From NCBI GenBank assembly GCA_017519885.1, contig JAFWRO010000035.1, positions 31,427 through 95,426 on the forward strand: a stretch of 64,000 bases of DNA. Direction: 5' to 3'. Source of the stretch: Bacteroidales bacterium. Lineage in GTDB: Bacteria > Bacteroidota > Bacteroidia > Bacteroidales > UBA3663. Shown piece by piece: positions 1,157-51,998 of this stretch (position 1 is the first letter of the stretch; each line of letters starts with the position of its first letter). The position numbers and the translations under genes were made by a program. Below the pieces are notes generated by a model, which was not told where the DNA came from, ran no database searches, and saw only the letters and a list, made by a program, of their open reading frames with translations.

Positions 1157-1654
1157 TTAGCGATTCAATTTTGAAGCCACAACCTTGCCCAGATTGTATG
1201 TGATTTCCTCGCGGAAGTATGCTTCGTAGTCCTCGATGACGTTGTTGTTCTCATCCAGCGCCTCGTAGGTGTCCTGGTCGTAGTAACGCGGGAAGACTTC
1301 CTTGCGGGTGTGTTTGTCGATGAAGTAGAAGACGGGTTCGTTGTTGTCATCGACGTAAAGGGCAGTCTCGGCACTCTCGACCTCCAACAATGCAGCTTCG
1401 CGCTCGGGCTTGTAGCCCACATAGAGCAACAGGGCATCGTAACGAATGGGTACGGTGTTGCCGTTCTCGTCCTCGATAGCGTAGCCGTCATCGCCAAACA
1501 CGATATACTTGCGTTCGGTACTCGGCTTGATCTCACGTGTCTCCTGCTTCTTGGTTTCTGCGATAATCTCGTCGAAATACTGCTGCTTGATGATGAGGGT
1601 AAGCACTTTCTTACCGGATGCCACGTAGGCTTCCACTTGTTCCTTGAAGTTCAT
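1157..1654 (-). CDS. ASCH-like (PUA-fold) domain protein, 165 aa
   Basis: The N-terminal KVLTLIIKQQYFDEIIAETKKQETREIKP resembles the first strand-helix-strand of ASCH domains. The rest is acidic and unassigned. Confidence 0.5.
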   Translation of the reverse strand: MNFKEQVEAYVASGKKVLTLIIKQQYFDEIIAETKKQETREIKPSTERKYIVFGDDGYAIEDENGNTVPIRYDALLLYVGYKPEREAALLEVESAETALYVDDNNEPVFYFIDKHTRKEVFPRYYDQDTYEALDENNNVIEDYEAYFREEITYNLGKVVASKLNR

Positions 1655-1703
1655 AGTTTGTGCGTTTTAGTTGTTTTAAGCTTCTATATAACATCCTTGT
1701 TTT

Positions 1704-1819
1704 AGGGGTCGCTTCGCTCAAAATTATAAGAAAATCTAATATAAAAATTATCAAAAGGGCGGGGGCTTCTTATAATTTTAAAATTAATTTTTTTACAATT
1801 TTGAGCGTCAGCGACCCCT
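1704..1819. repeat. Palindromic leader element, copy 1 (MITE-like; terminal inverted repeats GGGGTCGC..GCTCAAAATTATAA)
   Basis: The left arm ggggtcgcttcgctcaaaattataa pairs with the right arm ttacaattttgagcgtcagcgacccc. A second copy lies at 6856-6997. Confidence 0.85.
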
Positions 1820-1863
1820 CATGTTATAATCCATTTTTGTTTTCGTTGTCGAAATGGACGCTG

Positions 1864-1871
1864 CAAAGGTA
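1864..1871 (-). promoter_or_regulatory. Bacteroidota -7 box TACCTTTG (minus strand) upstream of element copy 1 and the ASCH-like gene
   Basis: Plus-strand caaaggta matches TAnnTTTG on the minus strand. The same tgcaaaggta context recurs at 7018-7028. Confidence 0.5.
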
Positions 1872-1966
1872 AAGAGAAGGTGTGAAAAAGGGCTTCCCAC
1901 TTTTAGGTCAAAAAAAGTTGGCTATAAGATAATACCATTTTTGTCATTAATGATTTTCCTAAACCA

Positions 1967-2020
1967 CTACACTTTTGTGTAATTCTCCGATTAGAATGAC
2001 AGAATTACCCAAAAGTGTAG
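1967..2020. promoter_or_regulatory. 54-bp inverted repeat just upstream of the cassette promoter
   Basis: CTACACTTTTG-T-GTAATTCT [14-nt loop] AGAATTAC-C-CAAAAGTGTAG gives 19 paired positions. It ends about 23 bp before the -7 box at 2043. Confidence 0.6.
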
Positions 2021-2042
2021 TGCCATTGTGAAAGATTCCCCT

Positions 2043-2050
2043 TATCTTTG
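2043..2050 (+). promoter_or_regulatory. -7 box TATCTTTG for the membrane/GNAT-like/ThiF-like cassette
   Basis: cttATCTTTGcagcgg is an exact TAnnTTTG match followed by CA, as at many other genes in this window. Confidence 0.55.
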
Positions 2051-2087
2051 CAGCGGAAATAAACCTATATGGGTATTTCCAGGATAA

Positions 2088-2153
2088 ATGGACAATACAC
2101 GAATCTTGCTTAACAGCAAATTATACTGGACAGCTAATAATTTAATCGAATGA
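2088..2153 (+). CDS. Candidate 21-aa mini-ORF MDNTRILLNSKLYWTANNLIE
   Basis: It has an ATG start, and its TGA overlaps the ATG of the next gene (ATGA at 2150-2153). It is too short for the ORF track. An overlapping alternative 14-aa ORF sits at 2069-2113. There is no other support. Confidence 0.2.
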   Translation: MDNTRILLNSKLYWTANNLIE

Positions 2154-2668
2154 ATAAAAGCCTAAAGTGCTTGCTACCTATGGGCATATTGGGAGTTATC
2201 TTGCATACAACCATATATTTTACATTTTGTCAGAGCAACCGCACACAAGGTATAGGAATTGCCGTTATTTCTTTATTGTTGTTTACAACAACTTGCTTAT
2301 CTTATTTGATTAAGGCAAAAGATATCTTGTTGTTCGATAGCATTAAGACTCTTTATGTTATATTATTCAGTATGTTATCCTATACATTCTTATTTAATGC
2401 ATGGTGTATGATAATCTCCGAAGATAGTATATGGACAATTTCTCTATTACAAAGCATCCTATATCCCATCATATTGTCAGGGTTCATTGGGAAAGCTGCA
2501 AGTAAGAAGAGCTTCAAGGATTGTTCTGCCCTGATGTTTATTTTCGCAATCGCGAGTTGTAGCTTTAGATTTGATCCCAATAATCTAAATATACTTGCTA
2601 TTATCTCATATATTATTTGCATCGTCATCCCATCTATATTCGATTGGGGCCATAGTAAATATATTTGA
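2150..2668 (+). CDS. Polytopic membrane protein, 172 aa, no recognisable family
   Basis: There are five to six hydrophobic segments, the sequence is AT-rich, and it is first in an operon-like arrangement. Confidence 0.6.
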   Translation: MNKSLKCLLPMGILGVILHTTIYFTFCQSNRTQGIGIAVISLLLFTTTCLSYLIKAKDILLFDSIKTLYVILFSMLSYTFLFNAWCMIISEDSIWTISLLQSILYPIILSGFIGKAASKKSFKDCSALMFIFAIASCSFRFDPNNLNILAIISYIICIVIPSIFDWGHSKYI

Positions 2669-2835
2669 CTCAAATCAAGCAAGTGCATAATTTGATGGAT
2701 ATTAAAGACAATTATGGAAAGAATGTACCCTATGTCTCCAATCGGGTTAAGACAAAGGTATCGTCCCCGTAGTTCCTTTGATTCATCGACTTTTGCACTT
2801 GCCAAAGTCGATGAAATTATAAGTTTATATCCTAA

Positions 2836-3471
2836 ATGTTTAATAATATCGAATCAAACTATACAATCAGCCGATTGCAGACATCGGAGCTGCATGAACT
2901 TATTCATTTCGTTGTTGAGCAGAATTATTCTCATCATTCGCCCAAAACTGACAAAGGCACTATAGAAGAAGAAACATTGAGTCTGGTTGATGAAGAGCGA
3001 ATGATTTGCAGTGATAATTCACTTACTTACGTGGCACGGAGCCGATTGGGACAGATAATTGGCAGCATCCGCTCATGCCGTTGGGATAGAAAAGCTACGT
3101 TGCCTATGCTGAAAATCTTCAACATTAACCCAGCGGAAATAATTGAACCTTCTGAAGACGTTCAGTTTTGGCATGTCGGGCGATTTGCAGTAGATTCATG
3201 TTGCGGTATTTCCCCAATCATTCTATTCAAGCAATTGATGCATTTCGCCATCATCCCAATCGTAGAGGCAGGTAATGCCATTATGCTTGCCGAAGTGGAC
3301 AACCATCTGATGCGAGTCGTTAACCACCTGGGCATTAAAACTCATCCGTTGGGAAATTCCATCGTATATTTAGGCTCACTCACGACCCCTGTTTATTCAT
3401 TGGCAAGCGACCTGCATGATTATTACGACAGATATAAAACTTCATTTGCTGAACAAAAACTTTCAAAATAA
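2836..3471 (+). CDS. GNAT-superfamily, LuxI / N-acyl-amino-acid-synthase-like protein, 211 aa (tentative)
   Basis: The core ...VQFWHVGRFAVDS... resembles the WELSRFAI/V strand of autoinducer or N-acyl amino acid synthases. A TAA lies immediately upstream in frame. Confidence 0.5.
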   Translation: MFNNIESNYTISRLQTSELHELIHFVVEQNYSHHSPKTDKGTIEEETLSLVDEERMICSDNSLTYVARSRLGQIIGSIRSCRWDRKATLPMLKIFNINPAEIIEPSEDVQFWHVGRFAVDSCCGISPIILFKQLMHFAIIPIVEAGNAIMLAEVDNHLMRVVNHLGIKTHPLGNSIVYLGSLTTPVYSLASDLHDYYDRYKTSFAEQKLSK

Positions 3472-4223
3472 TGAAAGAAAGATACAGTAGAAACAGGCTG
3501 TATGTCCTGCCTGAGGAGCAGGACATCATCAGCCAAAAGCGCATCCTGTTGGGAGGTGCCGGCATAGGGAGCATCATTGCCGAATGTGCCATCCGCTTCG
3601 GCTTTGAGAAAATGACCATTGTCGATGGGGACGTGGTGGAGGAGAGCAATCTCAACCGCCAGAACTACTGCCAGTCTGACATCGGCAAATATAAGGCCGA
3701 AACCTTGGCAAAACGGCTTTTGGCAATCAATCCTCATGCACAAATTGCGTATCTTAACGAGATGATTACCCATGATAATCTGGTCGGCCTCATCGAAGGA
3801 CACGACATTGCCATCAATGCATTGGACTTCAATAGCGACATTCCATTTGCGCTCGACGAGGAATGCAGAAAGAGAGACATTCCAGTGCTGCATCCTTACA
3901 ATTTCGGATGGGCTGGATTTCTCACAATCGTCAGCCCGCATGGCGAACCGATAACAGTTTTGTCGAACAATCCATCAGGATTCGAACTGAAGATGGCAAA
4001 CTACGTCACCCAATATTGCGCATTCTGGCAGAATCCCAAGAATTGGCTTCAGAACATCATCGAACGATATGGAAAAGAAGTCGGGAATATGCCACCTCCA
4101 CAGCTGTCTGTCGGCTCATGGATTGCTGCAGGATATTGCGTGAATGCAATGTATCGGCTTTCGACCTCGAAAGAAGTGCATTTCTTCCCTAACTTCTATC
4201 TGTCAGCATCCGTGAACGAATAG
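3471..4223 (+). CDS. ThiF/MoeB/HesA-family E1-like adenylyltransferase, 250 aa
   Basis: It has the Rossmann loop LLGGAGIGS, the hallmark VDGDVVEESNLNRQ, and INALDF. Its start overlaps the previous stop by 1 nt (TAATG). Confidence 0.85.
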   Translation: MKERYSRNRLYVLPEEQDIISQKRILLGGAGIGSIIAECAIRFGFEKMTIVDGDVVEESNLNRQNYCQSDIGKYKAETLAKRLLAINPHAQIAYLNEMITHDNLVGLIEGHDIAINALDFNSDIPFALDEECRKRDIPVLHPYNFGWAGFLTIVSPHGEPITVLSNNPSGFELKMANYVTQYCAFWQNPKNWLQNIIERYGKEVGNMPPPQLSVGSWIAAGYCVNAMYRLSTSKEVHFFPNFYLSASVNE

Positions 4224-4225
4224 TG

Positions 4226-4984
4226 CTAAATCAGCCTGTAATTCGAGGCGAAAGAGAGCGCTTCGGTGATGTTCTTGACTCCAACTTTTTCGAACAGACG
4301 CCGCTTGTAGAATTTCACCGTATCGACCGACTTGAAGATACGATTGGCTATCTCCTCCATCTTCAGCCCTTGGGCCGAAAGGAGGAGAATGGCCTTTTCC
4401 TCTTCGCTCAGTGACACGCGCTCCCCTTGATGCCATCGGTGATCGTCCAACGAGTAGTGCCAGAAGATGTTCGTATTGTTCTTACTCACCACAATTTGCC
4501 CAGGCTTGCCCTGCGCGGAATACGAAACGACACATACAGCCAACCAGACCCTACCATCCGTGGCGAGCATGAGCGGAGTCAGCTGGTGGTTGATGAGACG
4601 CTTCTGCCTCTCGCTCAGCAGATGGAAGTCGTAGGAGATGCTGTAATCCAGTCGCTCCTCCTTCGGTATCTCATTGAAGAAGCGGAATCCCGCAGTATTG
4701 ATCTCCACCAGCATGTCGAGTTCATCGGCCGGGACATGCTGCATGTAGAAACCATAACCCATCTCCAACACCTCCTCACGGGTATGTCCGCACAGGAAAA
4801 GCGGATTGTCCGAAACGTAGAGGAAACCCTGCTTGAAATAGTCGATGATATATACGCTCTGGTAGATGGTTTGCGCAAGGGCCTCTGCAGTCCTTATCAA
4901 TGGTTCCACCTGGCTATAGTCCAAGCCCTCCGCCTCGCCAACGGCATTCTCCGGAATGAAAAAATGGGATACCTTTACCTCCAT
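4226..4984 (-). CDS. PAS-like sensor + LuxR/GerE-type HTH transcriptional regulator
   Basis: The C-terminus is LSEEEKAILLLSAQGLKMEEIANRIFKSVDTVKFYKRRLFEKVGVKN. I place the start at the ATG (MEVKV...), because the ORF-track TTG start at 5023 falls inside the -7 box. Confidence 0.85.
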   Translation of the reverse strand: MEVKVSHFFIPENAVGEAEGLDYSQVEPLIRTAEALAQTIYQSVYIIDYFKQGFLYVSDNPLFLCGHTREEVLEMGYGFYMQHVPADELDMLVEINTAGFRFFNEIPKEERLDYSISYDFHLLSERQKRLINHQLTPLMLATDGRVWLAVCVVSYSAQGKPGQIVVSKNNTNIFWHYSLDDHRWHQGERVSLSEEEKAILLLSAQGLKMEEIANRIFKSVDTVKFYKRRLFEKVGVKNITEALSFASNYRLI

Positions 4985-5020
4985 AAAATAAAATCCTGAT
5001 GAATTATAAAAAATGTTGTG

Positions 5021-5028
5021 CAAAGATA
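5021..5028 (-). promoter_or_regulatory. -7 box TATCTTTG (minus strand) for the LuxR-type regulator
   Basis: Plus-strand caaagata lies 37 nt upstream of the ATG at 4984. Confidence 0.5.
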
Positions 5029-5163
5029 TGGTTTTCCTCTGTTTTTGACAACTTTTCTTCTATTTATCTGGATATTATTTTTATTTTCTGTATTCTAATG
5101 ACATTCTTAGATGGCATTCCGATGACAAGATTCTATTATCATTTTCGTGGCATAACCAATCTT

Positions 5164-5600
5164 GGCCAAAACTGGTTATTCTTCGACAGAAGTATGGCCT
5201 TTCTTGGCCAAGATTGGTTATTCTTCGTTCGCTGCATACCCTTTCTTGGCCAAGATTAGTTATGCTGCGGTTGGATAGAGCACTCTGTCGGCCGTCGGAG
5301 TGCTTGCTCCGATTGAGGCATGACCTTTTTCGGCCAAGATTGGTTATTCTCCGTTCGCTGCATACTCTTTTTCGGCCAAGATTGGTTATTCTCCGTTCGC
5401 TGCATACCCTTTCTTGGCCAAGATTGGTTATTCTTCGTTCGCAGCATACCCTTTTTCGGCCAAGATTGGTTATTCTTCGTTCGCAGCATACCCTTTCTTG
5501 GCCAGGATTGGTTATTCTTCGTTCGCAGCATACCCTTTCTTGGCCAGGATTGGTCATGCCGCGATCGAATAAAGCACTCTGTCGAACAACAGAGTGCTTT
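5164..5600. repeat. Tandem array 2: exact 42-bp period, unit GGCCAAGATTGGTTATTCTTCGTTCGCWGCATACCCTTTCTT, closed by a perfect hairpin
   Basis: GGCC starts at 5164, 5206, 5248, 5290, 5332, 5374, 5416, 5458, 5500 and 5542. The terminal hairpin AAAGCACTCTGT-CGAACA-ACAGAGTGCTTT is at 5571-5600. Confidence 0.9.
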
Positions 5601-6275: not shown

Positions 6276-6824
6276 TTAGATGTTCTTGATGAATTTGGCG
6301 GGATTGCCACCTACGATGGTGTTTGGAGCAACGTCCTTTGTGACAACGGCACCGGCAGCTACTACGGCATTCTCGCCGATGGTCACACCAGGCAGGATGA
6401 TGGCACCCACGCCGATCCAGGCATTGCGGCAGATGTGGACGGGCTTGCAGCGCAGCACCATGCGGTTCTGGAAGTCGTGGTTGTCGGTGACGATGCGCAC
6501 GTTGGGACCTATCATCACACCATCGTCGATGGTGATGCCGCCTGCGGCCATACAGGTGAGCGAATGGTTGACAAACACGCCTCTGCCGATCTTCATCTGA
6601 CAGGCGAAATCGATCTGCAACGGGGGCATCAGATAGCTGGTCTGGTCGAGGCTGCCATTGAAGAGCGTCTCTTCGAGCGGACGTATCTGCTCGGGCATGG
6701 GTGCCGTCGTGTTGATCTTGAAACAGATGTTTGCGCAGTCGGTCATGTGCTTGATTGCCTCTGCATATTCGGGTGTCGCCATGTTTACATCGGCACCGGA
6801 GCGAAGTTGTTCGAAAATGTTCAT
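6276..6824 (-). CDS. Sugar O-acetyltransferase (maltose/galactoside acetyltransferase-like, hexapeptide-repeat)
   Basis: It shows left-handed beta-helix repeats (IGRGVFVNH..., IDDGVMIGPNV, IGENAVVAAGAVV) and the C-terminal VGGNPAKFIK. Confidence 0.9.
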   Translation of the reverse strand: MNIFEQLRSGADVNMATPEYAEAIKHMTDCANICFKINTTAPMPEQIRPLEETLFNGSLDQTSYLMPPLQIDFACQMKIGRGVFVNHSLTCMAAGGITIDDGVMIGPNVRIVTDNHDFQNRMVLRCKPVHICRNAWIGVGAIILPGVTIGENAVVAAGAVVTKDVAPNTIVGGNPAKFIKNI

Positions 6825-6855: not shown

Positions 6856-6997
6856 GGTCGCTTTGCTCAAAATTATAAGAAAATTAATTTTAAAATTATC
6901 AAAAGAATATGTCAAAAAAGAATGTCGTTATAAATCCCGACCCGTTTTTCTTATAATTTTTTGTTTTATTTTTTTATAATTTTGAGCTTTGCGACCC
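6856..6997. repeat. Palindromic leader element, copy 2
   Basis: ggtcgctttgctcaaaattataagaaaa ... ttttcttataatttt ... tataattttgagctttgcgaccc. About 45 of the first 50 nt are identical to copy 1. Confidence 0.85.
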
Positions 6998-7020: not shown

Positions 7021-7028
7021 CAAAGGTA
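7021..7028 (-). promoter_or_regulatory. -7 box TACCTTTG (minus strand) upstream of element copy 2 and the acetyltransferase
   Basis: Plus-strand caaaggta sits in the same gtgcaaaggta context as at 1861-1871. Confidence 0.5.
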
Positions 7029-7148: not shown

Positions 7149-7655
7149 TTATAAAGATTCGATTTCCTCTATTGTCAGACCAGTAATCTCAGCAATATCT
7201 TCAACTGCAAAGCCCTTGGCCTTCATCTTGCGGGCATTTTCAATATTTGTTTTGAGCACAGCATCGGCCGTATCCTCAAAGTCATCGGCCTTGGACACCC
7301 ATTCGTTCCAATCGGTCTTGGCAAGATAAAGCTCCACCTGTTTCTTCAGCACTGGGATGTCGTTGATGGCTGTGTTATAAAGTTCTCTGTCGTCGATGGT
7401 AGCATAATCATGAACCAGAATGTGACGCATACCTTGTACAAATTTCCATGGTATAGCAGGATGTGCATTCTTGAAAGCTTTAGTCAGCATATAGGCCGCC
7501 TCACCCACTACCTCGATATTTTTCATAACAGAGAAATAGGTGCGCTTATCTTTGACGAGAGATTCGAAAGTGTATCCCTCAATAAGCATCATAACATTCG
7601 CGGAATATTCGACGATATCTTCTAACCGCCCTTTATCCCTCGCTCTTTCTCTCAT
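7149..7655 (-). CDS. hepT: HepT-like (DUF86) RNase toxin of a type VII TA pair, with a C-terminal extension
   Basis: The RX4HXY motif is present as RHILVHDY. It overlaps the MNT gene by 23 nt. The extra tail is ...ENARKMKAKGFAVEDIAEITGLTIEEIESL. Confidence 0.85.
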   Translation of the reverse strand: MRERARDKGRLEDIVEYSANVMMLIEGYTFESLVKDKRTYFSVMKNIEVVGEAAYMLTKAFKNAHPAIPWKFVQGMRHILVHDYATIDDRELYNTAINDIPVLKKQVELYLAKTDWNEWVSKADDFEDTADAVLKTNIENARKMKAKGFAVEDIAEITGLTIEEIESL

Positions 7656-7941
7656 AAATCAAAATTTTATCTCGGTTAGCACTTGCTGCTGCGTACGGGC
7701 GAAGCGTTCCTTCGACAACCAAATCTACTTCGCGACCTAACAGCTCCTGCAAGTCCATCAACATGCCTCCATGAGTGAAGAGCGTGAAAGGCTTGCCAGA
7801 ATAATCGGGAACAAAAAGGATATCAACGTCACTCTTCGGTGTCTCCTCGCCACGGGCAAAGGATCCAAACAGCCATGCCTTCAGGACAGGTTGTGTCTTG
7901 AAGTAGTCGGCTATAGTCTGTTGTATCAGTTGGTTGCTCAT
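7633..7941 (-). CDS. mntA: MNT-type nucleotidyltransferase antitoxin
   Basis: It carries the GSxxRGxxxxxSDxD motif as LFGSFARGEETPKSDVDIL, is 102 aa long, and lies upstream of and overlapping hepT. Confidence 0.9.
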   Translation of the reverse strand: MSNQLIQQTIADYFKTQPVLKAWLFGSFARGEETPKSDVDILFVPDYSGKPFTLFTHGGMLMDLQELLGREVDLVVEGTLRPYAAASANRDKILIYERKSEG

Positions 7942-10182: not shown

Positions 10183-11277
10183 TCACCCCACGATATACTT
10201 GCTGCCCGGAAGCAGCGAGATGAGCCAGGTTACCAGCGCACTGCATGCGTATGTGAGCATCGCGATGACCGGGATGGCAAGCCATACGGGAAGCGATGGA
10301 TTAGCCACGTCGCCAGCGATGATCCACTCCGAAATCGGGATGAGGAAGAAGATGTGCATCAGGTACATGCCGAAGGTCAGCTTGCTGATGCGCGTGATCC
10401 AGGCGGGAGCCTCCTGGATGCAGGAGAAGAGCAGGAACGCGCCGAACGTGGTGATGAGGACGTTGAGCGTACAGAACTCCCACGACCATTCCGCCATCGG
10501 GGTATCCAGCATCTGTCCGGGAACGCCTTTCCACCAGAAGCTCCATGCCGTGAACGCAGCACCGAAGAGGAAACACAGGCTACCCACCTTGATGCGCTTC
10601 GAGCGTGACCAGTCGAGGTGCACACGGATGTAATGCGCCAACACCAGGTAGCCCAGATAGCCCGAGCAGTACCACAGTGCGGAGAAGTTGTTCCAGAAGC
10701 ATTCGCCCCACAGTTCAGGCGACACGAAGCGATGGAGCCAGGGGATGAGCGTCGAGAAGGCAAAGATGCCGAGGAACGTCAGTTCGTCCTTCGCGCTGGC
10801 CTTTTCGAGCCAGGGCGACACCACGGGGATGATGAGGTAGATGCTGATGAGCGGATACATAAACCACAGATGGCCTGCGATGGGCGGGAAGTTGAAAGGC
10901 ACCATCTTCAGGTCGTGCAAGGCCTGTTCCTGCGTTGTGCCTCCCCAAGCCAAAGGCAGAACGGCATAGAGCAGCAGGAAGCACACAAAGGGTGGCAGGA
11001 TGCGCAGGAAGCGCCGGCGATAGAACTGCCCCATGGTCATACCTTCGCGCATCGGGACGAGCAGGAAGGCTGACACGATCATGAACAGCGGCACGGAGAT
11101 ACGCCCGAAGAAACCATCATAGATGGATACCCACAGGCGGTTGCTCTCGTTGGCCAGCATCGTATAGGCATCGTGGTCAACGTAGAAACATTCACTCGCG
11201 TGGACGACCATCACCAGAAGGCAGGCCACCACGCGAATGTAATCGACAAAGGCAATACGGGGAGAAGGAGTTTTCAA
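10183..11277 (-). CDS. Acyltransferase-3 family membrane O-acyltransferase
   Basis: It shows RIAFVDYIRVVACLLVMVVHASE and about 10 TM segments. The only possible start is a TTG that sits inside the heptamer repeat. Confidence 0.85.
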   Translation of the reverse strand: MKTPSPRIAFVDYIRVVACLLVMVVHASECFYVDHDAYTMLANESNRLWVSIYDGFFGRISVPLFMIVSAFLLVPMREGMTMGQFYRRRFLRILPPFVCFLLLYAVLPLAWGGTTQEQALHDLKMVPFNFPPIAGHLWFMYPLISIYLIIPVVSPWLEKASAKDELTFLGIFAFSTLIPWLHRFVSPELWGECFWNNFSALWYCSGYLGYLVLAHYIRVHLDWSRSKRIKVGSLCFLFGAAFTAWSFWWKGVPGQMLDTPMAEWSWEFCTLNVLITTFGAFLLFSCIQEAPAWITRISKLTFGMYLMHIFFLIPISEWIIAGDVANPSLPVWLAIPVIAMLTYACSALVTWLISLLPGSKYIVG

Positions 11278-11330
11278 TTAACAATTAACAATTAATAATT
11301 AACAATTATCAATTAACAATTAACAATTAA
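11275..11330. repeat. 8 x 7-bp tandem repeat CAATTAA (complement TTAATTG)
   Basis: caattaa caattaa caattaa taattaa caattat caattaa caattaa caattaa. It contains the upstream gene's TAA stop (11320-11322) and the downstream gene's TTG start (11275-11277). Confidence 0.9.
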
Positions 11331-13515: not shown

Positions 13516-15759
13516 TTATAAATGTATCAAAGCGCTTGGAAGGCCGTCACACCTGGCACCCACGACGCAGGGACCTGTAAGGCTGCGAAGACGAATGGTG
13601 GCTCGACCATTGGCAGCCTGGATGCGACGGGAGCCTGTGGTGGTGCCCTGGTTGACGAGCAATTCGCCATCGCCGGCAATCGAGAACTCAATCCAATCGC
13701 TGCTGTCGAGACAGCGGATGCCATTGGCGTCGTAGAGCTGGGCCTCGATCAGGTCGGGGGCAATCCGCGTGAGTCGCAGTTCGGCAGGCTTTCCCCAATG
13801 TTCGGTCTGATATTCGAAGGTAATCTCGTCGGACAAATCCTTGGCGACGGCCTTGATGGTGTTGGTGCCTCGTTGCAGGACGACGTTCCAATGGAAGCCC
13901 TGGGCGGGATAGTCCTCCATGTTACGCTTTCGTTTGCCTACCGACTGGCCATTGACGAAGAGCTCTACCTCGGGCTGATTGGAATAGACGAGGACCTCAC
14001 GGGGTTCGCCTTCCTCGCCCCAACGCACAGGCCAGGAATGTCCGTAGATGTGAAGCATCGGCTGGCTTGCCCAATAACTTTGGAACACGTAATAACTCTC
14101 CTTGGGCGTGCCATCGCGCTGCATGATGCCCTTCTGGTTGACGTAAGGAATAGGATTCGAGGGACGCAGCGGGGTGCAGAAATCCTTGAAGGTCCAGAAT
14201 GCCGATCCCGTCAGGTTGGGCATCCTGGCCTGTTCCTTCAGATGCCAATCGAAGAGACGGACAATGTAGCTCTCCGACCAGTCGCCTTTCTTGTCACCGA
14301 CCTCGATGTCGAAGCCCGACTCGGCATGTCGGCCCGCATGACTGTCGCCTCCCCATTCGGCATGCAGGAAATGGGGGAAGCGTGCGATGGCAGCCTCCTC
14401 CATCTCGCGATAATCGGTGAAGCGTCGGCTGTACCAACCTGCCCAAATCGACGGCGAATAGATATCGACGATGTCGGCACAGAAGTCGCAGCGACGAATG
14501 ACCGTCTTTCGCAGGGGGTCGAGCCGATGGGCGTGATCGTTGAGCGACGTCATCAGAGAACGGATACCCAGCGTATCGATGATGGTAGAGAAATCGCCTG
14601 GCCAGTCATTTTCGTTGCCGAGGCCCCAAAGGATGATGCTCGGATGATGACGATGCTGAGTGATCATGTTTTCGAGCATTCGATGAGCCTGCTGCTGATA
14701 CTCTTCTCCCCCTACTCCACCACGGCACCAGGGAATCTCTTCCCACACGAGGATGCCGAGCGAGTCGCAGAGGTCGAGCACGAGGTCGCGCTGCTGGTAA
14801 TGGCCCAAACGGATGAAGTTGGCACCCATGTCCTTGATCTGCTTCATCTCCTGTCGGATCTGCTCATCGGTCATAGCGGCACCCACTCCGGCATGGTCCT
14901 CATGGCGATGTGTACCCTTCAAGAGCAGACGGCGACCATTGAGGAAGAAGGGCCCATGCTCGCGGAACACATAACTGCGGAAGCCAAAGCGACGCTCGAT
15001 GACCTGTTGGCCAAAAGTGATACGAAGCGTATAGAGCGATGGCGAATCCACATCCCACAACGTAGGTTTCCTGATGCGGATAGGCAGACCGATGCCCCCT
15101 TCATAGACCGTCTTTCCATCGGGAGACACGATGCTGCAACTGACGTCCCCGATATCAGATGGCGAAGTTTTCACACTTACCTTGTCGCCCTCCACATCGA
15201 TGCGGACATCGCTGATGTAGCGCTCGGGCAGATACACCAGATGAACGGGGCGATAGAGTCCTCCATAGAGGCAGAAGTCGCTCATGTCGGAAGGAATCAT
15301 CTCCACATCACGACTGTTGTCGCAACGCACGGCAATGGGATGCCGGCCATTGCCGACTTCGGTGATATCGACCGTCCAACGGTCGTAACCGCCGACGTGC
15401 GAACCCATCAGACGGCCATCGACATAGACCTGCGTCTTCTGGCCTGCACCTTCGAACTCCAGCAAGGTATGTCCCCCAGCATAGGGATTTGCCACCTCGA
15501 TGGTGGTGCGATACCAGGCAGCACCCTGATAGTAGTTCACGTCGGGATCGACACCATCTTCGGCATTATAGCAATGGGGAAGCGTGACGTCCTGCCACAA
15601 CGGGACGCTTTCGGGTTTCCCTTCCTTCACGGGACGCTCCACCTCCCAGACGTTTGCCATGTCGGTGCGAACGAATTGCCATTGGGACAAATTGACCTGT
15701 GCACCAGCTGTCACAGCCAGCACACAGGTCGAAAAACAAAGCACACACAATCGTTTCAA
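13516..15759 (-). CDS. Glycoside hydrolase family 2 (beta-galactosidase/glucuronidase-like)
   Basis: Motifs are NFIRLGHYQQ, WGLGNENDW (acid/base) and HAEWGGDSH (nucleophile region). It has a signal peptide and a TTG start at 15757-15759. Confidence 0.9.
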   Translation of the reverse strand: MKRLCVLCFSTCVLAVTAGAQVNLSQWQFVRTDMANVWEVERPVKEGKPESVPLWQDVTLPHCYNAEDGVDPDVNYYQGAAWYRTTIEVANPYAGGHTLLEFEGAGQKTQVYVDGRLMGSHVGGYDRWTVDITEVGNGRHPIAVRCDNSRDVEMIPSDMSDFCLYGGLYRPVHLVYLPERYISDVRIDVEGDKVSVKTSPSDIGDVSCSIVSPDGKTVYEGGIGLPIRIRKPTLWDVDSPSLYTLRITFGQQVIERRFGFRSYVFREHGPFFLNGRRLLLKGTHRHEDHAGVGAAMTDEQIRQEMKQIKDMGANFIRLGHYQQRDLVLDLCDSLGILVWEEIPWCRGGVGGEEYQQQAHRMLENMITQHRHHPSIILWGLGNENDWPGDFSTIIDTLGIRSLMTSLNDHAHRLDPLRKTVIRRCDFCADIVDIYSPSIWAGWYSRRFTDYREMEEAAIARFPHFLHAEWGGDSHAGRHAESGFDIEVGDKKGDWSESYIVRLFDWHLKEQARMPNLTGSAFWTFKDFCTPLRPSNPIPYVNQKGIMQRDGTPKESYYVFQSYWASQPMLHIYGHSWPVRWGEEGEPREVLVYSNQPEVELFVNGQSVGKRKRNMEDYPAQGFHWNVVLQRGTNTIKAVAKDLSDEITFEYQTEHWGKPAELRLTRIAPDLIEAQLYDANGIRCLDSSDWIEFSIAGDGELLVNQGTTTGSRRIQAANGRATIRLRSLTGPCVVGARCDGLPSALIHL

Positions 15760-15873
15760 GGTTAAGAGGGGTTTGAAGGGTTCGAGGGGTTCGAGGGGTT
15801 CGAGAGGTTTGAGAGGTTAAGAGGGGCTAACAACCTTTCGAACCTTTCTTAACCTTTCGAACTTTTCAGAACC
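15760..15873. repeat. Intercistronic G-arm/C-arm tandem-repeat hairpin (9-bp units GGGTTCGAG / CCTTTCGAA)
   Basis: About 7 G-rich 9-mers (15760-15826) are followed by a short loop and about 4 complementary C-rich 9-mers (15834-15873). It fills the gap from one gene's stop to the next gene's start. Confidence 0.85.
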
Positions 15874-15874
15874 A

Positions 15875-18214
15875 TCATTTATTCAGCTTGTCTCTTCTAT
15901 GCAGCGCCTCGAGGTAATAGTAGTCGGCATAGTTGATGGGGACGTCGATCTCGTCGCCAGCGGGGTAGTTGCCCGTGGCGTGCAACAGGAGGAAGCCCTG
16001 TGCGGTGCCCGGCTCGGGCTGATAGCTGGTCTCCAATGAATGGAGAACGCGGTCGGCATAGCTGCGATAAGCGGCTGCGGTGTCGGCATCGACATAGGTA
16101 GCCAGTTCGTAGAGCGCGGAGGCGATGATGGCTGCTGCCGAAGCATCGCGTGGACATCCACCGTCCTGGGCAGGACCCACGCCGGTCTTGATGGCAGGGT
16201 CGCGCATGTCCCAGTAGGGAACCAGGTCGTCGGGCATATCGGGTTGTGACATCCAGAATGCGGCAATCTTCTGCGCCTGCTCCAAGTAGGCCTTGTCATG
16301 GGTATAACGATAGCACATCGTGAAGCCATAGAGACCCCAGCCCTGACCACGACTCCATACCGACTCGTCGAAGAGACCCTGGTGGGTGATGCGCTTGATG
16401 ACGCTGCCATCCTCGGGATTATAATCCACCACATGATAGGAGGAATAGTCCTCGCGGAAATGATTGCGCATGGTAGTGTTGGCATGCGAAACGGCAATGT
16501 TGTAGTAGCGCTTGTCACCCGTGATGCGTGATGCCTCGAAAAGCAGTTCGAGGTTCATCATATTGTCGATGATGACAGCGAACTTCCATCGGTCGGGTGT
16601 GCCCCAACTCCAACTGCGGATGCAACCCACACGGTCGTCGTAACGAGTGATGAGCGTCTTGGCTGCCTTCACGACAACGTCGCGATAGGACTGCTCGCCT
16701 GTCAGTTCCCACGCCTTGCCGAAGGTGTTATAGACCATGAAGCCCAGGTCGTGGCTTCCTCCATGGTTCTTCACCGGTTCGATGGGCCAGGTGTTGCTGA
16801 CCGCCTGCTGACGCCAGAAGGGATCGTGCGAATACTGGTACATGTGCCACAGTTCGCCACCGAAGAATCCACAGCACCAGTCGGGCTGACGCACCATACG
16901 CAAATCGCCGTTCTTCTCCACGCAACGTGGCATCAACGACCAGTCCTTGCGGTCCTTGCGTATCTTGTTCGCCTGGCTGAGCTGATGGCGCAACTGCACG
17001 TCAGCACGAGCAAAGGCATTGTCGGTGAGGTCGGGCGTATAGTAGAGCAGGAAGAAACGATCGGCAAAACGACGGATAACGTTGTCCTTGGCCAACTGCA
17101 GGTAGTCGGTGCGCTCGGGTTCTAGCAGGTAGAGACGATAGAAGTCCTTGGCCAGTTCGTTCTGCTTGTAGTCCCACTCGCTGATCTGCTGGTAGGGCCA
17201 CTCCTCCACCTTTCTGCCCATATACGGGGCAAGGAAGTCGGCGGCTTTCTCGAGCAGGTCCATGCCCTCGGGCTGATAGCCTGCCTGTCGTGCCAGCTGG
17301 AAGACGTCGATGATGTGCGTCATATTGTACTGCGAGTAACCGAAGGCCAACGTACGGCGCAACTCGTTGGGCTGTTTGCCATCGGGCTCGATCTGCGTCA
17401 GCATGCGCTTCTCGTAGAACTGTGACAGATATTCCTCCATCACCTTCTTGTCGCCCACAAATTTGGCGTAGGCGATGACCTGCACATCGTGGGCAGTGGC
17501 GTGGTTGTTGCGCTGGTTTCCTTCCTCGATGCCCTGTTCGCTGGTCAGGATCCAATGGAGGAACTCGGCGAACCATTTCCGAAGCGCCTTGGCATCCTTG
17601 GCGGTAAAGGCCTTTGAACCTTCGAGCAGTTGCACGGCATCGAGCATCTCGACAAACGAGTAGGCATCGATAACCCCGTAGCAGCGTCCCCTGCCGTTGA
17701 ACTTGCCAGGCACAATCTGGGCATGGTTCAGATTCGGATTCATCCTTGTGTCCTTGTCCAGGAACCATACTCTCAGCAGTTCGGCAGCCTTCCGGGCATA
17801 ACGCTCGTCGCCGCTGAAATACCAAGCCAGCGAGAGGGTGGTGACCCCGTTGGCCATCAGCGCCAGTTTCGGACGGTCGAGGAGTTCCAGTTCGGGATTC
17901 GACACACCGTCGCGAGCGATGTAGGGCAGTCCGTCGGGCTTGGTCGGATCGGGCCAGTAGTAGCGGCTCAGACTCAGGTAGTCGTGCTTGTCGCCACTGG
18001 CCGGCACCTTCTCCTTCATCATCACCGAAAGCGGCTGGCGCTGCAATTCGCTCTCGGCCTCGTCGAGAAGATGACGATAGGCTGTGGCGTAGGCCGGCTG
18101 TTCCAGCGAGGCTTTCACCCGGGCGAGGTGAGCGCCGTCCCAGATGGACTGCGCCCCCGCCGTCGATACGGGCAAAAGAAGGAGGAATAGACCAACTAAC
18201 TTATGAATCCTCAT
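15875..18214 (-). CDS. Fusion protein: alginate-lyase-like (alpha/alpha toroid) N-domain + GH88 unsaturated glucuronyl hydrolase-like C-domain
   Basis: The N-half has ...LSRYYWPDPTKPDGLPYIARDGVSNPE.... The C-half has ...GSHDLGFMVYN..., VIIDNMMNLELLF and WSRGQGWGLYGF, typical of GH88/GH105. Confidence 0.75.
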   Translation of the reverse strand: MRIHKLVGLFLLLLPVSTAGAQSIWDGAHLARVKASLEQPAYATAYRHLLDEAESELQRQPLSVMMKEKVPASGDKHDYLSLSRYYWPDPTKPDGLPYIARDGVSNPELELLDRPKLALMANGVTTLSLAWYFSGDERYARKAAELLRVWFLDKDTRMNPNLNHAQIVPGKFNGRGRCYGVIDAYSFVEMLDAVQLLEGSKAFTAKDAKALRKWFAEFLHWILTSEQGIEEGNQRNNHATAHDVQVIAYAKFVGDKKVMEEYLSQFYEKRMLTQIEPDGKQPNELRRTLAFGYSQYNMTHIIDVFQLARQAGYQPEGMDLLEKAADFLAPYMGRKVEEWPYQQISEWDYKQNELAKDFYRLYLLEPERTDYLQLAKDNVIRRFADRFFLLYYTPDLTDNAFARADVQLRHQLSQANKIRKDRKDWSLMPRCVEKNGDLRMVRQPDWCCGFFGGELWHMYQYSHDPFWRQQAVSNTWPIEPVKNHGGSHDLGFMVYNTFGKAWELTGEQSYRDVVVKAAKTLITRYDDRVGCIRSWSWGTPDRWKFAVIIDNMMNLELLFEASRITGDKRYYNIAVSHANTTMRNHFREDYSSYHVVDYNPEDGSVIKRITHQGLFDESVWSRGQGWGLYGFTMCYRYTHDKAYLEQAQKIAAFWMSQPDMPDDLVPYWDMRDPAIKTGVGPAQDGGCPRDASAAAIIASALYELATYVDADTAAAYRSYADRVLHSLETSYQPEPGTAQGFLLLHATGNYPAGDEIDVPINYADYYYLEALHRRDKLNK

Positions 18215-33526: not shown

Positions 33527-34765
33527 TCATCGCCAATCAATCCAACGGTTGACATCCACGCTGTCCTTGTAGAGCGGGGCTATGCTGATGTCACGCGTGT
33601 CGATGCTATCGTTGCCGAGCAGAAACTTCTCGATGAAGGCCTCCACTTCGGGGAACTGCGATTCGGGCAACTGGCAATGACCATGTCCATCAATGATAGA
33701 ATAGCCGATGCGGTCGGCGATGCCGAACTGCTCCCACACCTTACGTGCCGCATTGACCGAGACGTAGGCCGAAAGATCGGCGAGCCACTTGAAGTCGGGA
33801 TTGCCCAACATCAGGAAAGCACGCGGACAGATGAGGGCGCAGAGTTCGTGGTGATCGTAGGGCAGGTGATAGACACTGTCGCCATGGAAGTTCTCTCGAA
33901 GGCTTTCGAGGAACCAATGGTAGTCGGTGCGGTCGAGGTCCTCCACGCCCTCCATCTCATGCGAGACGCGCCAGGCGGCAGCACCCCCTCCACCGGGCTC
34001 CTGAGCGATGGTCAGCGCCACTCGCTCGTCGAAAGCGCCGCAGAAGAGCGCCATCTTGCCGGCATATGAGCAACCTGTCACGCCGATGTGCTGCGTGTCG
34101 ATCTTCGTTACTTCGGGCCCCAGCTGCTGCAGGCCATCGATCAGTCGGCTCAGGCCCCATGCCCATTCGCTATAGGCGCCATTATCGATCAATTCGGGAT
34201 AGAGGCGCGTGAAGCCGTACTTCGTGCGGTCCAGCTCGCCCCTGAACTGCGAGTAGCCGCACACCTGCCGCTCGTGGTAAGTCATCAGCGCAATAGGACG
34301 CTCGGCAAAGATGGAGCCGGGCAGCGAGATATGGCTTGTGCCGATCATGAGCGGATAGGGCGGCTGCCCCGACGTGGGATAGGTGATGAGCGAGCTCAAA
34401 GTGAGCGTCTCGTCGCCGACAGTGACATCGACGAAGAGCGTATCGCCCGCCATGCGCGCCTTGACCTGACCCGCCTCGACGCTGGGCTTGGTGCCGATCT
34501 CATAATGCTGTATCTCCTGGGCAATCTCGGCGCGGCGACGCGACCACGAGGCGAAGTCCTCAGCGCGTCCCGACCCGTCGCTCCATGCCAAAGGGTCGGT
34601 CAAACCCATGACGCGAGGCAATGCATCGCGTGCAGGCATCGTCGGTGCAGCAAATGCTGCTCCTGTGTTCTCAACGTCATAGACAAGGGGCACCTCCGTC
34701 TCTTTCGGAGCCGTACAGGCTGCAAGCGCCATCAGCGCAACAGCGACAAGAAAAGAATTTTTCAT
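33527..34765 (-). CDS. CE15-like glucuronoyl esterase (lipoprotein)
   Basis: It has the nucleophile motif GVTGCSYAGKMAL (family GCSRxGK), QEPGGGGAAAWR, and a catalytic His in DGHGHCQLP. Confidence 0.65.
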   Translation of the reverse strand: MKNSFLVAVALMALAACTAPKETEVPLVYDVENTGAAFAAPTMPARDALPRVMGLTDPLAWSDGSGRAEDFASWSRRRAEIAQEIQHYEIGTKPSVEAGQVKARMAGDTLFVDVTVGDETLTLSSLITYPTSGQPPYPLMIGTSHISLPGSIFAERPIALMTYHERQVCGYSQFRGELDRTKYGFTRLYPELIDNGAYSEWAWGLSRLIDGLQQLGPEVTKIDTQHIGVTGCSYAGKMALFCGAFDERVALTIAQEPGGGGAAAWRVSHEMEGVEDLDRTDYHWFLESLRENFHGDSVYHLPYDHHELCALICPRAFLMLGNPDFKWLADLSAYVSVNAARKVWEQFGIADRIGYSIIDGHGHCQLPESQFPEVEAFIEKFLLGNDSIDTRDISIAPLYKDSVDVNRWIDWR

Positions 34766-51587: not shown

Positions 51588-51998
51588 AGCAAGCATTCTG
51601 ACGGCCGACAGGATGCTTGCTTCTATATGATAAGGTACTCTGTCGGCCGTCTGAGTGTTTCCGCAAAAGGAGGAAGCATTTTGTCGGCCGTCAGGATACT
51701 ATTTCCCGCAAGAGAATGTACTCTGTCGGCCGTCAGAGTGTTATTTCCCGTAGGAGCAAGTACTCTGTCGGCCGTCTGAGTGTTATTTCTCGTAGGAGCA
51801 AGTACTCTGTCGGCCGTCACGATGCTATTTCTCGCAGGAACAAGTACTCTGTCGGCCGTCACGATGCTATTTCCCATAGATGCAAGTACTCTGTCGGCCG
51901 TCAGAGTGTTATTTCTCGCAGGAGCAAGTACTCTGTCGGCCGTCAGAGTACTGTCGCAAAAAGAGGAAGCATCCTGTCGGCCGTCAGAATGCTTCCTC
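51588..51998. repeat. Tandem array 3: about 10 units of 41-42 bp, consensus GTACTCTGTCGGCCGTCAGAGTGTTATTTCTCGTAGGAGCAA
   Basis: GGCC starts at 51603, 51645, 51686, 51728, 51770, 51812, 51854, 51896, 51938 and 51979. The first and last units are strong hairpins. It is the same family as array 1. Confidence 0.9.

Follow-up and report, generated by a model that had tools for sequence, protein, structure and literature searches.

The two long palindromes that precede unrelated genes in the 64,000-nucleotide stretch of Bacteroidales DNA analyzed here (contig JAFWRO010000035.1 of assembly GCA_017519885.1, positions 31,427 to 95,426; hereafter, the window) are copies of a single element, here termed H, which is probably the gene-less miniature of a selfish GxxExxY nuclease cassette of rumen Prevotellaceae and other Bacteroidales. 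This identification follows from the fact that the two arms composing H also bracket a nuclease gene at other loci, and from two deletion intermediates (loci L037 and L001) in which both arms are kept and the open reading frame (ORF) survives in fragments. The initial annotation of this DNA had reported a palindrome of about 115 bp between a -7 promoter box and a start codon, with a second copy similarly placed at an unrelated gene, and had suggested either a MITE (a miniature transposable element with inverted repeats) preferring 5' leaders or a portable promoter and structured leader co-regulating two genes. The reported layout is indeed found at both sites, on the minus strand (Table 1), and neither of the two suggested explanations accounts for it as well as a nuclease cassette that has lost its gene.

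The arms of H bracket a gene of 141-142 aa belonging to the GxxExxY / PDDEXK_3 family in at least 27 loci. They flank the ORF in L078, L016, L059, L081 and L043, a complete H stands on each side of it in L049 and in L023 (contig NZ_FNRE01000004.1 of the cultured Prevotella sp. tc2-28), and a cassette with H-type arms was found in L145 and in all 20 contigs fetched for the identical proteins P0085/P0032. The layout is compact: each of the two inverted arms measures about 50 nt, the left one ends 3-18 nt ahead of the ATG, and the right one overlaps or abuts the stop codon, so that the stop codon TTATAA runs into it. The encoded protein matches both PF13366 PDDEXK_3 (E 1e-31, 109.7 bits against a cut-off of 22) and TIGR04256 GxxExxY (E 4e-34, 117.5 bits against a cut-off of 35), and both the G-x-x-E-x-x-Y motif and the catalytic D...E-L-K residues are invariant in the cassette proteins from related loci. 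Sequence comparison of the ORF with solved structures gave no match; its AlphaFold2 model (predicted local distance difference test score of 92.5) has as nearest, weak (E 3e-3 or worse) neighbors in the PDB Cas4 SSO0001, a restriction-endonuclease-like protein, lambda exonuclease, a splicing endonuclease and Hjc. The predicted fold agrees with that of a PD-(D/E)XK nuclease with no close characterized relative. An origin of the ORF in a defense system or a phage was considered and set aside, since PADLOC and PHROGs yielded only weak Cas4-like similarity.

Across all loci, arm pairs lying 0.3-3 kb apart enclose only GxxExxY cassettes, their deletion forms and one unrelated tandem array in L096, and no transposase. 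An internal deletion of the gene from such a cassette would join the left arm to the right arm and thereby generate H. In the 20 P0085/P0032 loci the cassette lies between a DUF6261 gene and a hypervariable gene, all on the same strand, and some of these orthologous loci carry an additional complete H, either in the left arm or just past the stop codon; comparison of loci with and without such a nested H (e.g. L129 and L128) reveals a duplication of 0-1 nt. Regarding the surroundings of these cassettes, the gene that follows them in L125-L144 (DUF6261 gene, cassette and downstream gene at ~1290-5400) encodes 416-710 aa, varies between samples and has no Pfam match, and the array of ~42-nt tandem repeats in L096 (4900-5300; GGAGCGTCAACGTCCGTACGCGTTCC...) stands between two solitary H arms, as a repeat family that travels with H.

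Bracketing by inverted repeats extends well beyond the cassettes with H-type arms. Metagenomes scanned with six aligned GxxExxY proteins provided 80 loci from many environments, with protein identities of 37-82%. For each gene, the upstream 150 nt were aligned to the downstream 150 nt in reverse complement, and bracketing was expressed as a z-score against shuffled sequences. Among 74 GxxExxY genes, 47 exceeded a z of 4 and 40 a z of 6 (median 6.8), as compared with 17 and 14, respectively, of 404 control genes from the window and the first loci (median 0.1) and with none, at either threshold, of the 43 window genes taken alone. Eight of the 17 controls above 4 are themselves GxxExxY genes and three are located between two H copies; excluding GxxExxY genes, 9 of 396 controls pass the lower threshold. 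The two strongest remaining controls match PF05635, the 23S rRNA-intervening sequence protein family (L070 1122-1712, E 5.9e-6, under the curated cut-off; L045 1336-1824, E 2.9e-32). Both lie outside rRNA genes, with z-scores of 27.9 and 14.5, respectively, and their brackets consist of short repeats arranged in inverted arrays (CCTTAAGGG units; CGTATTCCTGTATTC facing AAGAAGACAAGA). The arms of distant GxxExxY genes are likewise short direct-repeat arrays (octamers such as CGCAAAGN, CACAGAGN and CACGGAGN) lying 0-60 nt from the ATG and the stop codon, and H-type arms occur only around proteins with about 70% or more identity to the Prevotella clade, which indicates that the arms change together with the protein lineage. 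Bracketing is hence a trait of the whole GxxExxY family, and genes of the intervening-sequence (IVS) protein family share the architecture. The window itself contains, at 15753-15876, a further gene-less hairpin between co-directional genes, made of 9-nt repeat arrays (GAGGGGTTC... facing AACCTTTCGAACC...) and thus resembling in style the arms that flank distant GxxExxY and S23p genes.

The window copies conform to the gene-less form. The 20-nt arm core GCTCAAAATTATAAGAAAAT has four matches in the window with up to three mismatches, against none expected from 100 shuffles; further fuzzy arm matches at 34490 and 39079 were dismissed as chance. H has the ends GGGTCGC...CTCAAAATT, and copy A spans 1705-1818, the 1704-1819 of the initial annotation being a true palindrome drawn one base too long on each side. 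The two copies had also been called near-identical, and they prove to be related only: their arms are ~85-90% identical and their centers are set apart by an indel of ~33 nt. The orientation of copy A was assigned with nhmmer, the score being 107.6 for one strand as compared with 55.0 for its complement. At both sites the order along the minus strand is the TACCTTTG box, AAAACAAA, H, a spacer of 50 (A) or 31 (B) nt and the ATG, in agreement with the boxes and shared spacer originally noted. RNA folding gave -59.2 kcal/mol for the A leader (z-score of -8.1 relative to shuffled sequences) and -37.8 kcal/mol for the B leader (z-score of -5.6). Rfam detected nothing at gathering threshold and no rRNA in the 64 kb, and the only matches below threshold were long hairpins of a generic kind, namely WsnRNA46 (29 bits, with a threshold of 65) and a miRNA precursor. 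Of the host genes, that of copy B encodes a hexapeptide acetyltransferase, as had been stated; the protein encoded next to copy A had been described as ASCH-like and matches neither ASCH nor any other Pfam or NCBIfam family.

Table 1. Positions in the window of the two H copies, their promoter-like motifs, the associated leader modules and the host genes.
Feature	Position	Strand	Description
H copy A	1705-1818	-	114 nt, short size class, gene-less; GGGGTCGC...GCGACCCC, center GCCCCCGCCC
H copy B	6856-6997	-	142 nt, long size class, gene-less; GGTCGC...GCGACCC
Gene-proximal ('right') arm, copy A	1705-1756	-	...TTTTGATAATTTTTATATTAGATTTTCTTATAATTTTGAGCGAAGCGACCCC; best-conserved part of the family (50-copy alignment)
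Promoter-distal ('left') arm, copy A	1767-1818	-	GGGGTCGCTGACGCTCAAAATTGTAAAAAAATTAATTTTAAAATTATAAGAA
Arm motif TAATTTTG, proximal arm of copy A	1719-1726	-	fits Bacteroidetes -7 consensus TAnnTTTG, directed towards the gene; 64 nt from ATG
Arm motif TAATTTTG, proximal arm of copy B	6868-6875	-	TAnnTTTG motif; 43 nt from ATG
Upstream -7 box, copy A	1864-1871	-	TACCTTTG; 209 nt from ATG; box of the initial annotation
Upstream -7 box, copy B	7021-7028	-	TACCTTTG; 196 nt from ATG; box of the initial annotation
Leader module X	1819-1863	-	CAGCGTCC-ATTTCGACAACGAAAACAAAAATGGATTATAACATGA; small hairpin TTTCG-ACAA-CGAAA at 1841-1854
Leader module Y	1680-1704	-	TAAAACAAGGATGTTATATAGAAGC
Host gene 3' of copy A	1157-1654	-	165-aa protein, start codon at 1654; matches only phrog_625, function not known
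Host gene 3' of copy B	6276-6824	-	182-aa hexapeptide-repeat acetyltransferase, start codon at 6824

H constitutes a dispersed family. When one genome per species was scanned for the degenerate 20-mer of the arm, more than 113 stretches were recovered, mostly from rumen Prevotella/Bacteroidales metagenome-assembled genomes, and a profile built from the two window copies and run on 113 fetched loci gave 110 matches, 56 of them full length and 105-145 nt long overall, in two size classes (~105-115 and ~143 nt). Genuine copies are confined to Bacteroidales loci, the matches in other phyla being chance 20-mers without the element, and a single genome, Reindeer_1_mag_244, harbors no fewer than 25 full copies, together with 11 partial ones, all in unrelated surroundings. 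In the phage and plasmid collections H had no match, and one short copy was found in a viral contig. When genes are called by codon-usage score, 52 of the 56 full copies are intergenic and four overlap a gene call, and all of them are close to protein-coding genes. Taking the minus strand of the window as reference, 21 lie between co-directional genes in the orientation seen in the window and 10 in the flipped one, 7 between divergent and 3 between convergent genes, with the remainder at a contig end or overlapping a gene call; several copies come within 10-20 nt of a stop codon, and nesting of one copy inside another also occurs. H is thus an intergenic element with a moderate lean towards the region just upstream of a co-oriented gene and not a leader-specific device, given that copies also occur flipped, between convergent or divergent genes and near stop codons. 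The preference for 5' leaders in the initial annotation survives as this lean and in both window copies, and fails as a restriction to leaders. The right flank of H is A-rich, usually (CC)(T)AAAACA, the (T)AAAACA stretch being of a kind presumably typical of Bacteroidetes leaders. No target-site duplication was apparent at 52 distinct insertion sites, which bears out the original remark to that effect. No description of H-type hairpin cassettes, or of Prevotella in connection with hairpins of this sort, emerged from the full-text literature searched, although other literature or database notes may hold one.

The arm tips carry the clearest sign of a maintained structure. Each arm ends in a small local stem-loop, the tip, which reads outward TTTTGAG-[C..GNA..G]-CGACC (...GAGCGAAGCGACC). 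The loops of 310 tips are mostly G-N-A (GAA 124, GCA 41, GTA 17, GGA 7), and the stems occur in six variants that all keep the pairing (GC/GC, GCC/GGC, GCCC/GGGC, GGCC/GGCC, GGTC/GACC and GGAC/GTCC). The commonest form, GCGAAGC, is a classic and very stable DNA mini-hairpin. Judging by these substitutions, the tip hairpins are maintained by compensatory changes, as in repetitive extragenic palindromic (REP) elements and in REPINs, the REP doublets that form hairpins. Within a single element the left tip may be unlike the right one (L004, L078, L102), from which it follows that what is conserved there is the local hairpin and not the long-range pairing, which is the logic of the REP units within a REPIN.

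The history of the copy B site was examined by comparing contigs that encode the identical acetyltransferase. Copy B is present in L120, L121 and L123. It is absent from L122, where AAAACAAA and a 14-nt tandem repeat are all that separates the TACCTTTG box from the ATG, 50 nt away, and this spacing indicates that the upstream box is the ordinary promoter of the gene and that H is an addition to a leader of normal length. L124 retains no more of H than its final 8 nt (AGCGACCA), beside a different upstream region, so that H marks a rearrangement breakpoint. Two further observations concern this locus. The CAATTAA / 14-nt AT-rich tandem repeat found in L122 (~2950-3000), where it takes the place of H in the acetyltransferase leader, is of the kind that also occurs in the window at 11275-11330, ahead of gene 10183-11211. 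In addition, a HepT-like / nucleotidyltransferase (MNT) toxin-antitoxin pair located just upstream of copy B (7149-7941) is absent from the otherwise syntenic L123.

The arms may also influence transcription of the host gene. On both strands of the window there are 42 TAnnTTTG motifs; the nearest one to a start codon lies at a median distance of 43 nt, and within 15-90 nt in 15 of 19 window genes. For both H-bearing genes this nearest motif is the TAATTTTG of the gene-proximal arm, the boxes of the initial annotation being farther away (Table 1). A host mRNA started at the upstream -7 box would carry H as an additional stem of ~50 bp in its leader, which RNase III would probably cut, by analogy with the stems of rRNA intervening sequences, and the outward-facing TAATTTTG, placed at a normal promoter distance, may act as a promoter that offsets the insertion and restores host expression. 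No -7 motif was seen ahead of the cassette ORF and, in the 20 DUF6261 loci, the cassette is on the same strand as both of its neighbors; on these two grounds, the cassette probably depends on host transcription, which would explain why the window copies lie between promoter and ATG and share the direction of the host gene. The window has no GxxExxY gene and neither of its copies has an ORF, which suggests that they are non-autonomous or relics. As to the manner of spread, we would tentatively propose that the nuclease assists copying, by homing or gene conversion, through its action on the folded arms, much as REP-associated tyrosine transposases (RAYTs) act on REPINs.

The alternative of a portable promoter and structured leader, in which the segment from the -7 box through H to GTTATATAGAAGC would be a cis-regulatory RNA module co-regulating several genes, draws on the surroundings of copy A. 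This copy was seen in each of the 24 contigs read that encode the identical 165-aa protein, none of them offering a clean empty site. Copy A is flanked there by two modules, X and Y (Table 1), and since ATGTTATA of Y pairs with TATAACAT of X, H sits in the loop of an X-Y hairpin. The larger repeated unit thus formed (1680-1867) begins inside the -7 box and is 94% identical over 191 nt to L099 5781-5971, in another genome and with unrelated gene and flanks; the X-H-Y unit recurs after the -7 box before unrelated genes, and X directly follows the box at 17 of 17 places in related genomes, with or without H. The X hairpin even displays a compensatory change in L028, from TTTCGA..TCGAAA to TTTCGG..CCGAAA. 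All this speaks for a module, and the repetition of the unit elsewhere upholds part of the initial proposal. L028, however, has X and Y without H (4398-4470), X also occurs alone or joined to other repeat modules, and H can be inserted either way round relative to X (L009, L012), which identifies H as an independent insert in a pre-existing leader hairpin and is reminiscent of intervening sequences in the loops of rRNA helices. Moreover, the box lies outside H, most H copies lack X and Y, copy B retains only the AAAACAAA remnant of X and no Y, and H is also found at gene 3' ends and between convergent genes. The genes 3' of X have no common function, which goes against the co-regulation that had been envisaged, the long stem shows no covariation and has no Rfam family, and the strain without H keeps the same promoter and gene. 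A regulatory module comprising H is consequently unlikely.

Two other explanations regard H as a mobile element of a known kind. A REPIN-type doublet mobilized in trans by a single-copy RAYT encoded elsewhere, with GxxExxY as a passenger or preferred landing site, would account for the two inverted units with their small hairpins, the high copy number, the intergenic location and the missing target-site duplication; yet the only ORF between H arms in the 113 and 111 loci is GxxExxY (no systematic RAYT search was made), the arms abut its ATG and stop codon and vary with its lineage across many phyla, and the tips lack the GTAG or CGTC tag of known REP superfamilies, so that we regard this scenario as distinctly improbable. 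An ordinary MITE, that is, a deletion derivative of a DDE-transposase insertion sequence sharing its terminal inverted repeats and preferring 5' leaders, is more improbable still. Such an origin fits the terminal inverted repeats, the small size without an ORF and the many intergenic, strain-variable copies. The initial annotation had proposed a genome-wide tabulation of positions and orientations, and copies do occur in every intergenic context, as for a plain MITE, yet H lacks both the target-site duplication and the transposase that define one: no locus has a transposase ORF between the arms, the longer forms instead holding the 141-aa GxxExxY nuclease gene or its fragments. In addition, the entire element, and not its ends alone, is a hairpin, and it is absent from the phage and plasmid collections. 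Three further classes were rejected on the basis of sequence. The ends of H (GGGTCGC/GCGACCC) and its flanks (ATAACAT/ATGTTAT) do not fit the RYYYAAC/GTTRRRY core sites of an integron attC, no recombinase that could serve an invertible promoter is present among the Pfam-annotated window genes around the two copies, and no U-tract follows the hairpin on either strand, as would be expected of an intrinsic terminator.

Several results weigh against the derivation of H from a selfish nuclease cassette. About one third of the sampled GxxExxY genes have no flanking inverted repeat within 150 nt, and Reindeer_1_mag_244, the genome richest in H, has no GxxExxY ORF among the matches listed. The gene-bearing copies look stably inherited rather than mobile, inasmuch as all those fetched by identical protein sit at one locus. 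The H-less allele of L122 is a replacement by the 14-nt tandem repeat, as opposed to a clean empty site or a precise excision. The orientation bias of H between co-directional genes is modest, and the strand calls for such a near-palindrome rest on differences in nhmmer score. Finally, none of the 18 consensus pairs in the long stem varies among 50 copies, with no covariation, so that the stem argues neither for nor against a selected RNA or DNA structure; the covariation analysis that had been proposed as a check therefore lends no support to a selected RNA structure.

Other repeats and an unusual gene block were also noted. A TTTCGA-N4-TCGAAA hairpin, seen in the window at 1841-1854 and in L028 (4398-4445, with the compensated pairing mentioned above), L044 (6232-6258), L090 (4454-4502) and L080 (1463-1492), stands immediately after the -7 box in many promoters of related genomes that are otherwise unrelated to one another, and could be a 5'-end stabilizer, an operator or another repeat module. 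A 22-nt inverted repeat with 95% complementarity (CACTACACTTTTGTGTAATTCT / AGAATTACCCAAAAGTGTAGTG) lies between two divergent promoters at 1965-2022 and is 80% identical in L056. Arrays of 42-nt tandem repeats with a super-period of 125/126 nt are located at 735-1111, 5160-5554 and 51635-51949, two of the three having the palindromic unit AGCACTCTGTCGGCCGTCACGATGCT in common; the first two are partly mutually inverted and bracket a 4-kb stretch that holds copy A, and similar arrays are found in L056, L004 and L099. Lastly, an island with FeeM-like, ThiF-like and GerE/LuxR-type genes (2856-4989, with genes 2836-3471, 3471-4223 and 4226-5023, plus 1965-2093) is 82-86% identical to L056, from Reindeer_1_mag_244, with a different gene order and atypical codon usage, and it looks like a transferred or rearranged block.

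The identification of H as a gene-less cassette bears on a nuclease family that is very large, with at least 8000 GxxExxY (TIGR04256 / PF13366) candidates, and that is named in genome annotations, many of these homologues lying on contigs shorter than 2 kb. The 2012 survey of PD-(D/E)XK nucleases lists the function of PDDEXK_3 as 'Unknown' (PMC3424549), and no account of the function of GxxExxY was found in the full-text literature searched, where the name is rarely mentioned. The frequent bracketing, the parallel with the IVS protein family, the dozens of gene-less copies per genome and the REP-like tips now give this family a concrete and testable role, as the gene of a selfish cassette. The same interpretation offers an origin for intervening sequences outside rRNA and accounts for a class of long hairpins, located in 5' leaders of Bacteroidales, which might pass for riboswitch-like regulators if their origin were not recognized, and in rumen and gut Prevotella such elements may alter gene expression and break metagenome assemblies. 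A wider proposal, which we advance tentatively and which is more doubtful than probable, is that GxxExxY and, in parallel, the S23p/IVS proteins are encoded by selfish, hairpin-bounded cassettes of a single class, widespread and as yet undescribed, from which only the 23S intervening sequences would have come to notice until now. In this view the nuclease would recognize its own folded arms, drive their copying and multiply gene-less doublets like H, in the manner of a REPIN system with a PD-(D/E)XK protein instead of a RAYT, and these doublets would reshape 5' leaders by contributing promoter-like boxes and RNase III sites.

Among known repeats, the MITEs described in Bacteroidetes (Porphyromonas gingivalis, BrickBuilt; PMC4596501) resemble H in being small, non-coding and intergenic, with inverted ends, and in that they can adjoin promoters. 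They differ from it in that H lacks a target-site duplication as well as any related insertion sequence or transposase, and in that the whole of H is one hairpin. The pneumococcal BOX elements are modular intergenic repeats whose modules occur in varying order and are predicted to fold in the transcript, and they have no known gene-bearing form. Similar mosaics of short modules (X, H, Y and short-repeat arrays) lie in differing order between the genes studied here, with sequences unrelated to those of BOX.

In its population behavior H comes closest to the REPINs or bacterial interspersed mosaic elements (BIMEs) and their RAYTs (Bertels and Rainey 2011, PMC3116915; Quentin et al. 2018, PMC6006769). 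Both are inverted doublets that fold as a hairpin and in which each unit keeps its own small palindrome through compensatory changes, both reach tens of intergenic copies per genome without target-site duplication and, in both, a protein gene is flanked by the repeats, whose sequence seems to vary in step with that of the protein. The flanked gene, however, is in one case a multi-copy PD-(D/E)XK GxxExxY nuclease and in the other a single-copy HUH tyrosine transposase, and the tips of H (GAG-C-GNA-G-CGACC) do not have the GTAG/CGTC tag.

The closest known architecture is that of the 23S rRNA intervening sequences of Salmonella, Leptospira, Coxiella and others, some of which carry an S23p (PF05635) ORF. 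Their inverted repeats form a stem that is cut by RNase III, and some contain a small ORF (PMC4990558). Like H and its cassettes, they are short elements with inverted repeats that pair into a long stem and an optional ORF of ~120-140 aa in the loop, they exist in ORF-less and decaying forms, and they insert in the loop of an existing hairpin (helix 25 or 45, as compared with the X-Y leader hairpin for H). PF05635-matching genes in the same Bacteroidales loci are, moreover, bracketed by inverted repeats just as the GxxExxY genes are. In contrast to the intervening sequences, H and the cassettes reside in mRNA leaders and between genes, with none of the 56 full copies in rRNA, and the cassette ORF encodes a PD-(D/E)XK nuclease where that of the intervening sequences encodes a four-helix-bundle protein. 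On the whole, H is better described as the gene-less, REPIN-like relic of an IVS-like nuclease cassette.

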